Assembly (NCBI GenBank): GCA_021149145.1
Contig: GCA_021149145.1_4322.1
DNA from: a phage
Reading direction: 5' to 3' (one strand)
Length of the DNA stretch: 34,803 bases
In this document: positions 9,894 through 21,036 of the stretch, piece by piece
Position numbering within the stretch: the first letter of the stretch is position 1
Layout: the number at the start of each line of letters is the position of its first letter
Notes under the pieces: generated by a model
What the model was told of the DNA's origin: nothing
Databases searched by the model: none
The model's input: the letters and a program-made list of their open reading frames with translations, nothing else
Program-made: the position numbers and the translations under genes

Positions 9894-10086
9894 TTTTTAT
9901 CTTCCCGCTCTGATTGCTATAGTTTTGAGTTTCTCTTTCAAGCTCGAGATAACCTTTAATATCCGCGCTAACTGAAACCCCGCCAATCACACCCTTTAAG
10001 CATTTATGTTCACGGTCAAGTGTTGCGTTGAATTTTTGGGAAGTGCCGCTTTCAATATCTTTTACGATGATTGTTACTTTTTTCAT
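9874..10086 (-). CDS. Hypothetical protein (70 aa)
   Basis: ORF starting MKKVTIIVKDIE; immediately downstream of the tRNA gene. Confidence 0.45.
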   Translation of the reverse strand: MKKVTIIVKDIESGTSQKFNATLDREHKCLKGVIGGVSVSADIKGYLELERETQNYSNQSGKIKNAALGC

Positions 10087-10381: not shown

Positions 10382-10579
10382 TCAACTTACTCTTTCGAAT
10401 TTCCCATAATTCTGGTCATACGGGTAGTCAATGCTCACCAATTCGCCATTATCGCTGTAGCAGAATGCGTGGCCAGTCTTCGATACCTTTTCGACCTGGT
10501 AATCGCATCCATCCATGAAGTCATCCGATGCCGCCTTTGTGCACTTGATAGCATCGCCTTTCTTAATAATCTTACTCAT
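10382..10579 (-). CDS. Hypothetical protein (65 aa)
   Basis: ORF; start overlaps stop of upstream gene. Confidence 0.45.
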   Translation of the reverse strand: MSKIIKKGDAIKCTKAASDDFMDGCDYQVEKVSKTGHAFCYSDNGELVSIDYPYDQNYGKFERVS

Positions 10580-10785
10580 TAAAACTCCTCAGTGATAAGC
10601 ATCTTGCCACAATATTTGCACTCGTAGAACGCACATGTTTCACCTATTGATACACTTGGTTTTGTTGACTCGTGGTATGCAGAGCTTATCGCCTTAATGT
10701 CAAAATCGTGAATGATTGATGTGAACACGTAAATGTAATGATGTTTGTGATTATTGTCGTTATCACTCATAAAGGCTATTCCCAT
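10579..10785 (-). CDS. Hypothetical protein (68 aa) with C-terminal CxxC
   Basis: ORF MGIAFMSD...; YECKYCGKM motif; 5' end lies inside a 29-bp direct repeat. Confidence 0.45.
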   Translation of the reverse strand: MGIAFMSDNDNNHKHHYIYVFTSIIHDFDIKAISSAYHESTKPSVSIGETCAFYECKYCGKMLITEEF

Positions 10786-10789
10786 TCTC
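10761..10789. repeat. 29-bp perfect direct repeat, copy 1 (TATCACTCATAAAGGCTATTCCCATTCTC)
   Basis: Identical to 10886-10914; on the minus strand it carries the ATG and first 8 codons (MGIAFMSD). Confidence 0.85.
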
Positions 10790-10793
10790 TAAC

Positions 10794-10910
10794 CTAATTC
10801 AATGTAAATATGAAGAAAATCATCCCAATTGCCGTAGCTATAGCCAATCCGATGGCGATCAGAGTTAGTACTAAATCAATGATAATATCACTCATAAAGG
10901 CTATTCCCAT
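10794..10910 (-). CDS. Possible small membrane protein (38 aa)
   Basis: Hand-translated: MGIAFMSDIIIDLVLTLIAIGLAIATAIGMIFFIFTLN; shares its first 8 codons with the downstream gene via the 29-bp repeat. Confidence 0.3.
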   Translation of the reverse strand: MGIAFMSDIIIDLVLTLIAIGLAIATAIGMIFFIFTLN

Positions 10911-10914
10911 TCTC
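10886..10914. repeat. 29-bp perfect direct repeat, copy 2
   Basis: Identical to 10761-10789; here it also encodes the C-terminus ...ENGNSLYE of the 78-aa ORF in another frame. Confidence 0.85.
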
Positions 10915-11124
10915 ATCATGACCCACACGCCCTCGACGATAGCCCGCTATCCACACAAACTTATCACGTGCGATTATCGTGGATACCGGCCCCCATATCT
11001 GAGTGATAAGCGCCGCAACAACCTTATCATCTTTCTTTTTTGCGCCCAATTTGCCGTATTCGTCATTCAGCTTGTCAGCCTGTCGCTTAACTGCGTTAAA
11101 GTATGCGTCGTCTAACCCGAACAT
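10888..11124 (-). CDS. Hypothetical protein (78 aa)
   Basis: ORF; motif-type promoter upstream (11154-11198). Confidence 0.45.
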   Translation of the reverse strand: MFGLDDAYFNAVKRQADKLNDEYGKLGAKKKDDKVVAALITQIWGPVSTIIARDKFVWIAGYRRGRVGHDENGNSLYE

Positions 11125-18525: not shown

Positions 18526-18549
18526 AAAAAAAGGGAGCCAAAGGCCCCC
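18526..18549 (-). terminator. Rho-independent terminator
   Basis: Minus strand GGGGGCC-TTT-GGCTCCC followed by T7; between the 57-aa gene and the lysis cassette. Confidence 0.65.
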
Positions 18550-18576: not shown

Positions 18577-18750
18577 CTATTCTGCGATAATAAATTCCAC
18601 CAAAGAGCCATCAATTGGCGCCAGGATGTGAGTCATATCGTCTCCGTAAATCTTGTAGTAACCATCTCCAAGCGACTCTCCGCTATAAGGTTGGCTCTCG
18701 GTAAAAGGCAGTGTCTTGGAGTTGTTTTTAACGCAGTATAATTTAGTCAT
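18577..18750 (-). CDS. Hypothetical small protein (57 aa)
   Basis: Hand-translated MTKLYCVKNNSKTLPFTESQPYSGESLGDGYYKIYGDDMTHILAPIDGSLVEFIIAE; GAGGG RBS; motif promoter upstream. Confidence 0.4.
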   Translation of the reverse strand: MTKLYCVKNNSKTLPFTESQPYSGESLGDGYYKIYGDDMTHILAPIDGSLVEFIIAE

Positions 18751-18781: not shown

Positions 18782-18826
18782 ATTATGCCGCATCTCTACG
18801 GCGATTGTTTAGCAATTCGTGCTATT
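18782..18826 (-). promoter_or_regulatory. Motif-type promoter (element + CATAAT)
   Basis: Minus strand AATAGCACGAATTGCTAAA, 22 nt, CATAAT, leader ...CATCGAAAACAACAGAGGG; element overlaps the kinase stop codon. Confidence 0.45.
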
Positions 18827-19363
18827 GATCACATCAATTACTATTTCTGTGGTTCTTTTAATATCACCTTCAATAACATCAATATCAATCTCCCTGGCGC
18901 AGACACCACTAAGATACGACCTACTATCTCCTTCGAAAGTGTATCCATGTCGATGAAGTCTAATTAATGTAACTTCAACACCTTCATCAATTAGTGGCTT
19001 AATCTCACTCGCGAACCCACCATCAGAACAAATGTAGCATCCATCACCAAGTGATTGCGCGAGCCTTTTACCAAAAACATCATCGCCAAAAACTGGCTTC
19101 ATCACTGATTCGCTAATCCAAATCATAAATTCACGAACAGTCATTCCACCAAGAAATTCGTGTGGTGATTCTTTGTACCCTCGGTCATCGTAATTATTAA
19201 TAAATCCATCAAACTCATCGCTTGATAGTATTCCTTTTGCAACATTAAACATTGGTGACTTGAATGAAACCTTATCCTTGCAAATTCCAAGATTAACAAT
19301 GATATCTGCAACTGTATCTTTTCCAGCACCAGGGGGTGCATTAATGATGATTAACTTTTTCAT
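18809..19363 (-). CDS. P-loop nucleotide kinase (dNMP-kinase-like)
   Basis: Track ORF 18809..19411; probable start MKKLIIINAPPGAGKDTVADIIV, which resembles the T4 gp1 dNMP kinase N-terminus as I recall it; AT-rich codons. Confidence 0.5.
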   Translation of the reverse strand: MKKLIIINAPPGAGKDTVADIIVNLGICKDKVSFKSPMFNVAKGILSSDEFDGFINNYDDRGYKESPHEFLGGMTVREFMIWISESVMKPVFGDDVFGKRLAQSLGDGCYICSDGGFASEIKPLIDEGVEVTLIRLHRHGYTFEGDSRSYLSGVCAREIDIDVIEGDIKRTTEIVIDVINSTNC

Positions 19364-19364
19364 T

Positions 19365-19827
19365 TTATTCTCTGTGAGATTCGCAGTCTTTTGGTAATTC
19401 TTTATATTCACAAACTGACATTACAGTATATCCGCAATTCCTTAGGTGACTGATAACATTAGGATTATCCTCAAAGATTATCACACTTGCTTTGTCACCA
19501 TTACACAAATCATTTAGCCACATCTCTTTAATGATATAGTCATTTCTGTTATCCAATCTACTCCTCATATATATTCCATCATAATTAATATTATTATACT
19601 GAAGCCATTCAAGCGTCATACATTCGACTTCGTCACTTCTTGAAGTCATGATGTAAACTGGCGATAACTCAGCTAACGCATTCATCATGTATTATAGGTG
19701 AATCTCCAGAACAGGCTCTATTGTAATCACCCCAACTTGAAGTCAAGTGAAGGTCACTAGATGGTAAGAGGTAGCTTCTATGTTCATTGTTAGCAATAGT
19801 TCCATCAATATCAAACACGTAAATCAT
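19365..19827 (-). pseudogene. HAD-family phosphatase split by a 1-nt frameshift
   Basis: GAGGAG RBS then ATG at 19827; MIYVFDIDGTIAN (HAD motif I) runs 52 codons to a TGA at 19669-19671; motif II-like IMTSRS and ...VIIFEDNPNV continue in another frame (19365..19688). Confidence 0.5.
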
Positions 19828-19902
19828 TACAACTCCTCATCTCGTTATCGTTTATTCATTTTGCCTCAATCCTTTGAGGCTTTATTAACAAAAAAGTGCT
19901 AC

Positions 19903-21036
19903 TTAGAACATCTCAGGGCGACAAATAAATCGACCAACCTCACCAAAACGCTTATGGTAAACGATTACCGCTGCTTGACGCATTGAGCGCCATCCTCCAT
20001 TAGCTGAGTAGGCATCTGGCGCGCCAAGCTGACCATGAACTTCATCGATACCCAGGTTTGTTTCTGTAATTTTCTGACTATGCCAGTGGCCCGAGTGTGT
20101 ATAGACATATTTGCTGTTACCGAATAGTTTACGAAAGTCTGTAGCCATTACTGTAAGTCGAGTTTCAGCTTTTCGCATCTGGTGACCATGAGTATAACCA
20201 ATCAATGTTGAGCCGAAGCTTGTCATCAGCATTGCTGCTGGGCTTACGTCGACAGTAACTCGCTCCTCGTCTTCATAGAATGCCGCCAATGCTGCACGCA
20301 ACCAAACCATCCCAGCTTCGTCGTGATTTCCACTTATTACTTTAATATCAATGATTTGGTGCTTCTCAAGCATCCTTGAAACCGCACGACGCACTGAGCG
20401 GATTGCTACGTAAACCAATTTAGCATAGCGACTGTCGCTGTCTAAGATATGTCCTGATGCTGGTGTTTTAGCCTCTAGAGAGTCGTAATGCAGAAAATCA
20501 CCCCCCAAAACTAATGTCGCATTTCTTGATTTAGGAGCCTTATCTACAGCATAATCAAAGAAGCCATTCATTACCTTCTCTGCTGTTGCAGTGTCGTAGT
20601 TTTCACCGCACTCATGCTTATGAGCCATTGCGCCAATGTGAAGGTCGAAAACAGGATACATAGCCATAGTGTCATCGTCAAAATCAATGTCTGGGCACTC
20701 GCTGGCAATTGCCTTTGGTAAATCAGAACAGAAGGCTTCACGCGCTTGCTCAAGCAGAATCTCAAGGCGTTCATTATCAACGCTTGTCTTAACCCACCGG
20801 ATTTTCTCATTCCCTTCCGCATCAATCATGGTAGAAGTGCCTTTTACCATGTATCCATCTGGCACTAGCTTCTTGATACCTTCATTACCATGCCCAACAC
20901 CACTCTTGGCTAACTTGCTGCGACGAAGCTCAACGTTGCGAATGTTCATGCCGTACTTCTCTGCAATTGCCTTGTTAGTCAGGCCATTCTTCAATTCTTC
21001 AGTTAACTGTTCATTTGTAATCTTTGCTACTGCCAT
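19903..21036 (-). CDS. Metallophosphoesterase (calcineurin-like) with N-terminal HTH-like region
   Basis: GDFLHYD, GNHDE and HGH motifs typical of calcineurin-like phosphoesterases; N-terminal LTNKAIAEKYGMNIRNVELRR resembles an HTH. Confidence 0.65.
   Translation of the reverse strand: MAVAKITNEQLTEELKNGLTNKAIAEKYGMNIRNVELRRSKLAKSGVGHGNEGIKKLVPDGYMVKGTSTMIDAEGNEKIRWVKTSVDNERLEILLEQAREAFCSDLPKAIASECPDIDFDDDTMAMYPVFDLHIGAMAHKHECGENYDTATAEKVMNGFFDYAVDKAPKSRNATLVLGGDFLHYDSLEAKTPASGHILDSDSRYAKLVYVAIRSVRRAVSRMLEKHQIIDIKVISGNHDEAGMVWLRAALAAFYEDEERVTVDVSPAAMLMTSFGSTLIGYTHGHQMRKAETRLTVMATDFRKLFGNSKYVYTHSGHWHSQKITETNLGIDEVHGQLGAPDAYSANGGWRSMRQAAVIVYHKRFGEVGRFICRPEMF

Follow-up and report, generated by a model that had tools for sequence, protein, structure and literature searches.

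The analysed DNA, a stretch of 34,803 nucleotides referred to here as the window, belongs to a T1-like phage (Drexlerviridae, Braunvirinae) and is present as a contig in an E. coli assembly. From position 10000 to 34803 (24.8 kb compared) it is approximately 92% identical to phages ES (OR466728) and AN_ECEAS (PP944860) over 84%, and it represents a partial genome, 34.8 kb of approximately 46-48 kb, with about 11 kb of the tail region absent. The order of genes at the locus is metallophosphoesterase ("DNA repair exonuclease"), HAD phosphatase, dNMP-kinase-like gene, SH3/DUF7244 gene, holin, SAR endolysin and u-spanin. Two overlapping open reading frames on the minus strand occupy the position of the HAD phosphatase. 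ORF1 (19669..19827, minus strand), the N-terminal fragment, encodes 52 amino acids that begin with MIYVFDIDGT, read MIYVFDIDGTIANNEHRS...GDSPIIHDECVS and end in SPIIHDECVS at the stop codon, while ORF2 (19365..19688, minus strand), the C-terminal fragment, encodes 107 amino acids, MMNALAELSPVYIMTSRS...VIIFEDNPNV...ESHRE. The frame of ORF2 is +1 relative to that of ORF1 and the two share a stretch of 20 nt (19688..19669). A Shine-Dalgarno sequence, GAGGAG (19838..19833, minus strand), which is kept in relatives, precedes the ORF1 ATG at 19827 with a 5-nt spacer, and ORF2 starts with two ATG codons, with the nearest GGAG 15 nt upstream, approximately 30 nt before the ORF1 stop.

ORF1 consists of the authentic residues 1-46, among them motif I (D6-I-D8-G-T) and R17, followed by six out-of-frame residues (HDECVS) and a TGA stop. 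ORF2 corresponds to residues 51-157 of the intact protein and carries motif II (T-S-R-S), the DNR-D...IKE block and motif IV (F-E-D-N), without the catalytic aspartates. On the phrog_415 profile ORF1 aligned to positions 22-67 (E 4.8e-12) and ORF2 to positions 72-180 (E 4.1e-26), and a tblastn search with the intact orthologue returned two collinear pieces of the window, one in frame -1 covering residues 1-46 and one in frame -2 covering residues 51-157. ORF1 and ORF2 are consecutive parts of one HAD phosphatase gene, far beyond chance. The first-pass annotation, made from the letters of the sequence, had described a strong ribosome binding site with an ATG at 19827, a frame of 52 codons and a second frame opening 20 nt before its stop, all of which we confirmed; its reading of the locus as one HAD phosphatase gene lying in two frames is likewise borne out by the match to Pfam family PF25109, by the two halves of phrog_415 and by the collinear tblastn pieces.

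The gene is broken by a deletion of 11 nt. At the junction between positions 19691 and 19690 (minus strand) the segment that reads TCCAATGATAA in near-identical relatives is missing, as seen in the alignments, in the difference list and in the codon view. The missing bases run from the third position of codon 46 through codons 47-49 (P, M, I) to the first position of codon 50 (N), with the net effect that P47-M48-I49-N50 are gone and the frame is shifted by +1. The window shows the same single 11-nt gap when aligned to ES, OzMSK, SU57 and PCEc3 and to the two closest contigs, DAFIFY010000039.1 and Logan DRR314303_226. A single-nucleotide indel was ruled out by these alignments; the "1-nt frameshift" proposed earlier mistook the net offset of +1 for the mutation, which is an 11-nt deletion against every relative. 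A clean microhomology deletion was ruled out as well, the bracketing ATAA repeats being 12 nt apart and the missing segment 11 nt long. Apart from the absence of TCCAATGATAA, the only difference in the HAD gene between the window and both near-identical contigs is a G-to-A change at 19373 (minus strand; coding strand), which is specific to the window and converts Gly156 (ESHGE) to Arg. Both G156 and I49, one of the deleted residues, are invariant in 23 homologues. As a single substitution at an invariant glycine, G156R fits relaxed constraint and can argue for it only weakly. Apart from G156R the fragments are undecayed, a state that fits a very young pseudogene and offers little independent evidence of relaxed selection.

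The two closest relatives were retrieved through exact-protein look-ups of the neighbouring genes. Identity to the window is 99.45% over 8.2 kb for DAFIFY010000039.1 (GCA_021146325.1) and 99.3% over the shared 5 kb for DRR314303_226; the two may come from the same sample. Both encode an intact HAD protein of 157 amino acids, and the gene is also intact in phages ES, OzMSK and SU57. More widely, 26 of 28 homologous protein clusters are 156-158 amino acids long, and all 60 phage records sampled evenly from 1029 match the HAD gene in one unbroken frame. The comparison with orthologues that had been suggested as a check thus found relatives that are intact in a single frame and none with the split arrangement. 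Two short homologues were rejected as further split alleles, P0028 being merely cut by the end of its contig and P0030 being a separate pseudogene with stop codons. Outside the HAD gene, two 1-nt changes against DAFIFY010000039.1 were noted, one at window position 19895, where a T run upstream of the HAD gene differs in length (T6 versus T5), and one at 18532, in the T-tail of a terminator-like hairpin downstream of the SH3 gene. In the GenBank record of phage ES only a 192-nt CDS (37015..37206) is annotated where the intact 157-aa HAD ORF sits (OR466728.1 36733..37206), and many of its product names seem to have been wrongly assigned; small ORFs at a distance from the lysis and head genes are called "u-spanin", "endolysin" or "capsid maturation protease", for instance. 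TR2-like phages have at the same locus a HAD allele of 182 amino acids that is 41% identical to the 157-aa type; the protein is extended at its N terminus, and the kinase follows after a longer spacer. Since this diverged allele lies between well-matching flanks (exonuclease and kinase approximately 86-88% identical to the window), a cassette swap in the TR2-like phages is indicated.

The intact orthologue scores 56.0 bits against PF25109 (HAD_PNKP; gathering threshold 27.6 bits), ORF2 scores 35.8 bits and ORF1 15.9 bits, the last below threshold. Motif I, located in ORF1, is invariant in the 23 homologues, and the residues of motifs II-IV in ORF2 (T65-S66-R67, K104 and E123-D124) are invariant in the family. 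The profile of the 23 homologues matches the phosphatase domain of Pnkp1 (4XRP) with an E of 6e-8 and the T4 Pnkp phosphatase weakly; in the profile alignment vFDiDGTiannehR lines up with IFDVDGTLAKMNGR, and the D-NRKD...KEE block is likewise aligned to the T4 equivalent. An AlphaFold model of P0003, an intact homologue with 98% identity (pLDDT 77, pTM 0.75), has its elements in a Rossmann-like order: strand 2-6, cap helices, helix 46-56, strand 61-68 and helix 69-81 in the first half, followed by strand 88-92, helix 100-112, strand 119-123, helix 126-134 and strand 138-141 in the second. Its best PDB matches in Foldseek are 4XRU/4XRP (Pnkp1) and 5UJ0/1LTQ/2IA5 (T4 Pnkp). Judged by the profile matches and the model, the intact protein is a stand-alone PNKP-type HAD 3'-phosphatase domain with a putative activity, and, as it lacks a kinase domain, the frequent database name "polynucleotide kinase" is a misnomer. 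By analogy with the family, the phospho-aspartyl intermediate would form on D6 and the general acid would be D8, T65, S66 and R67 together with K104 would contact the phosphate, and E123 and D124 would hold the Mg ion. The intact enzyme would probably serve to remove 3'-phosphates from nucleic-acid ends or from 3'-nucleotides. In the window D6 and D8 lie on a different polypeptide from the remaining catalytic groups and the connecting helix is truncated. Motif I and motifs II-IV being in different frames, no single polypeptide with the Rossmann-like core is encoded.

The genes on both sides are intact. Upstream lies the metallophosphoesterase (19903..21036, minus strand; 377 aa, HBM2295306.1), which matches phrog_704, "DNA repair exonuclease", with an E of 5e-151. 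The gene for the P-loop protein (18809..19363, minus strand; 184 aa, GAGKDT Walker A) follows the HAD stop, beginning 1 nt after it; it does not differ from that of the closest relative and matches phrog_139, "deoxynucleoside monophosphate kinase", with an E of 1.2e-43. Its relatives occur in 1444 phage records, T1 included, often beside the HAD gene, a pairing seen across Drexlerviridae, and its similarity to solved structures is weak and adenylate-kinase-like. "dNMP-kinase-like" is a reasonable label as far as sequence goes. Between the kinase and the lysis cassette with its holin there is a stand-alone SH3-like gene (DUF7244; 18577..18750, minus strand; 57 aa). Both neighbours had been recognised in the first-pass annotation, and the names given there hold, that of the kinase through phrog_139 and that of the metallophosphoesterase through phrog_704 and a weak Pfam Metallophos match. 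The "AT-rich cluster" into which it had placed all three genes fits the HAD gene, at a GC of 0.32-0.35, and to some extent the kinase, at 0.38-0.40; the metallophosphoesterase, with a GC of about 0.45 like the flanks, falls outside it. Along the window, GC falls to 0.32-0.35 over 19200-19800 compared with about 0.45 in flanking phage genes. Such a low GC over the HAD region fits an accessory cassette exchanged horizontally. A hairpin, GCCTCAAAGGATTGAGGC (19863-19880), lies in the spacer that separates the metallophosphoesterase from the HAD gene, with a sequence kept in ES, OzMSK, SU57 and PCEc3; on the plus strand it is followed by TTTATT and has a terminator-like score, though the flanking genes lie on the minus strand.

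According to a paper on phage KanT1 (2026), phosphatase and kinase genes are the commonest occupants of the variable exonuclease-holin locus of Drexlerviridae, a role of the two genes in nucleotide supply is suggested, and the SH3 gene occurs together with the two "kinase" genes in only seven Drexlerviridae genomes (PMC13164509). By this last count, the locus of the window has the rarer combined architecture. In the retron Eco2 paper (PMC12916289) the terms Drexlerviridae and polynucleotide kinase co-occur only through the methods section, and a link between the two was not found there. Decay of the module was also seen outside the window. The OzMSK-like Logan contig ERR2241898_113442 (locus positions 445-915) contains an independent HAD pseudogene with two in-frame stops (S30* and G136*) and a further change, R67K, at the invariant motif II arginine, next to an intact kinase. 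The reverse is found in ENA contigs ERZ27253577 k141_46313 (locus 10476-11007) and ERZ27253582 k141_46716 (680-1211), in which the kinase is broken over three frames with an internal stop and the HAD gene beside it is intact. Since either gene decays independently in related contigs, the module appears dispensable, at least under some conditions, and the widespread phosphatase/dNMP-kinase pair is repeatedly gained, swapped and lost.

Taken together, the split HAD gene is most likely a young, ordinary pseudogene of a well-known phage accessory gene, made by the 11-nt deletion. The disruption is specific to this lineage, the deletion being absent from the 99.45%-identical relative and from all others. 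The ancestral gene would have encoded the 157-aa stand-alone PNKP-type HAD phosphatase, a conserved T1-like accessory function next to the dNMP-kinase-like gene. The deletion would then have removed P47-M48-I49-N50, the first turn of the helix leading into the motif II strand. Translation from the strong ribosome binding site would stop after 52 codons and give a product that keeps D6 and D8 without motifs II-IV, and the 107-codon frame would keep motifs II-IV without the aspartates and without a properly spaced ribosome binding site. Neither fragment should be active as a phosphatase, and the phage has therefore probably lost this function, a loss apparently tolerated through the dispensability of the module. 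The protein accessions of the contig run from HBM2295302 (lysozyme) and HBM2295304 (SH3) to HBM2295306 (metallophosphoesterase), which leaves one number, HBM2295305, between SH3 and metallophosphoesterase, presumably that of the kinase. No number in the HBM series is free for a HAD product, and exact look-ups in the protein collection found the product of neither ORF. This gap is consistent with an annotation pipeline that treated the HAD gene as disrupted.

The first-pass annotation had left three explanations side by side, namely a pseudogene, ribosomal frameshifting and a sequencing indel. Of these the pseudogene is favoured, frameshifting has neither signals nor conservation on its side and an indel of technical origin is improbable, as the 11-nt deletion stands alone in a contig that is clean elsewhere. 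It is unlikely that the deletion is an assembly or sequencing artefact or a minority variant and that the phage truly carries an intact 157-aa gene. Several observations would be compatible with such an origin: the deleted allele is seen in a single assembly, its junction has no match in viral_contigs, in metagenome_contigs or in complete E. coli genomes, the contig covers only 34.8 kb of a genome of approximately 46-48 kb, and exact protein look-ups found no independent assembly of the same sample on record. However, a deletion of 11 nt in non-repetitive, homopolymer-free sequence is atypical of short-read or de Bruijn assembly error, and the deleted segment is non-repetitive and has no homopolymer. 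The gene also bears a second damaging change specific to the lineage, G156R. Every other gene common to ES and the window is in a single frame, and over 8.2 kb the other indels against the 99.45%-identical relative are confined to two 1-nt intergenic changes. A generally error-prone contig was ruled out: when all ES ORFs of 70 amino acids or more were run against the window by tblastn, the HAD gene was the only genuine gene split; the other multi-frame matches were short overlapping or paralogous ORFs. The 11-nt deletion thus appears to be real in the phage DNA and not a product of assembly.

A functional split gene would require that both fragments are made, ORF2 by termination-reinitiation, and that they form a non-covalent active HAD phosphatase or that one of them has taken a new role. 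The geometry is compatible with reinitiation, with an overlap of 20 nt and ORF2 opening with ATG ATG, all four HAD motifs are present across the two fragments together, and both fragments are otherwise nearly unchanged. This last point carries no evidence of selection because the allele is younger than 0.5% sequence divergence. With the break, moreover, P47-N50 are lost, the invariant I49 among them, together with the start of helix 46-56, a core Rossmann element; the GGAG 15 nt from the ORF2 ATG is too far away for an efficient Shine-Dalgarno interaction, the split arrangement occurs in no relative, and G156R affects an invariant residue. We therefore regard a functional split gene as very unlikely. 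It is slightly harder still to credit that the deletion allele is alive in the sense that the 52-aa and 107-aa fragments reassemble into an active HAD phosphatase or that one acts anew, for instance as a substrate-binding decoy.

The weakest explanation is programmed +1 ribosomal frameshifting or transcriptional slippage, giving a fused phosphatase short of about four residues. A +1 shift could connect the frames only within 19672..19691 (minus strand), a zone bounded by the final stop in the ORF2 frame (TAA, 19694..19692) and by the ORF1 stop, with the codons ATA CAT GAT GAA TGC GTT AGC. None of these seven codons matches its +1 neighbour at more than one position, so that a slippery codon is lacking and no codon of the zone can re-pair in the +1 frame. 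Runs of A or T, homopolymers of at least 4 nt and X_XXY_YYZ heptamers are all missing from 19691..19672. The codon before the ORF1 stop, AGC, is not prfB-like and has no Shine-Dalgarno-like stimulator just upstream. Folding the RNA of 19620-19730 gave no stable structure, the result being no better than for shuffled sequence (z = 0.33). Despite the strong ribosome binding site and the overlapping +1 frame that speak for it, recoding is not supported and is very improbable, as slippery codon, homopolymer, heptamer and structure are all absent, the shift is not conserved in relatives, which all encode the protein in one frame, and a fused product would still be without the conserved residues 47-50, including the invariant I49.

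The young pseudogene being the preferred reading, the correct label for the locus would be a disrupted PNKP-type HAD phosphatase pseudogene, and not two hypothetical proteins or a recoding candidate. Its importance beyond annotation is small. It has a minor value as a natural knockout, and comparing the phage of the window with its 99.5%-identical intact relative could help to test the role of the module.

Among known systems, the closest is the T1-like "polynucleotide kinase/phosphatase" (PHROG 415; T1 MK213796 5005..5469, OzMSK gp059 "putative acid phosphatase", SU57_00064), which is the same gene at the same locus. The ancestral sequence of the window gene is 98-100% identical to those of ES, AN_ECEAS and DAFIFY010000039.1 and approximately 40% identical to that of T1; unlike its intact 157-aa relatives in T1-like phages, the window gene has the 11-nt deletion and G156R. 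The 3'-phosphatase of T4 Pnkp (1LTQ, 2IA5, 5UJ0) shares with the intact protein the HAD fold, DxDGT, an Arg 11 residues after the first Asp, D-x-RKD...KEE and PF25109, and it matches the intact model in Foldseek with E values of 3e-5 to 2e-4 and a TM of about 0.65-0.7, at an identity of only 16-19%. In T4 Pnkp the phosphatase is joined to a 5'-kinase on its N-terminal side in a single polypeptide; the T1-like protein is the phosphatase alone, the intact orthologues having 157 amino acids with this domain only, and the adjoining P-loop protein is separate and dNMP-kinase-like. A "split T4-like Pnkp" was accordingly rejected as a description of the HAD and P-loop pair, the P-loop protein matching the dNMP-kinase PHROG and, weakly, adenylate kinases in the PDB. 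The best match both by profile (E 6e-8) and by structure (E 2.4e-5) is the Pnkp1 phosphatase domain (4XRP, 4XRU), part of the bacterial Pnkp1/Rnl/Hen1 RNA repair complex. Pnkp1 itself combines kinase and phosphatase in 312 amino acids and acts together with an RNA ligase and Hen1; no ligase or Hen1 gene was noticed in the relatives' annotations of the HAD locus. In its history the window gene resembles the frameshift pseudogenes of other phage accessory genes and has nothing that sets it apart from them: a lineage-specific frame-breaking deletion in a non-essential gene, intact close relatives and independent decay of the module.
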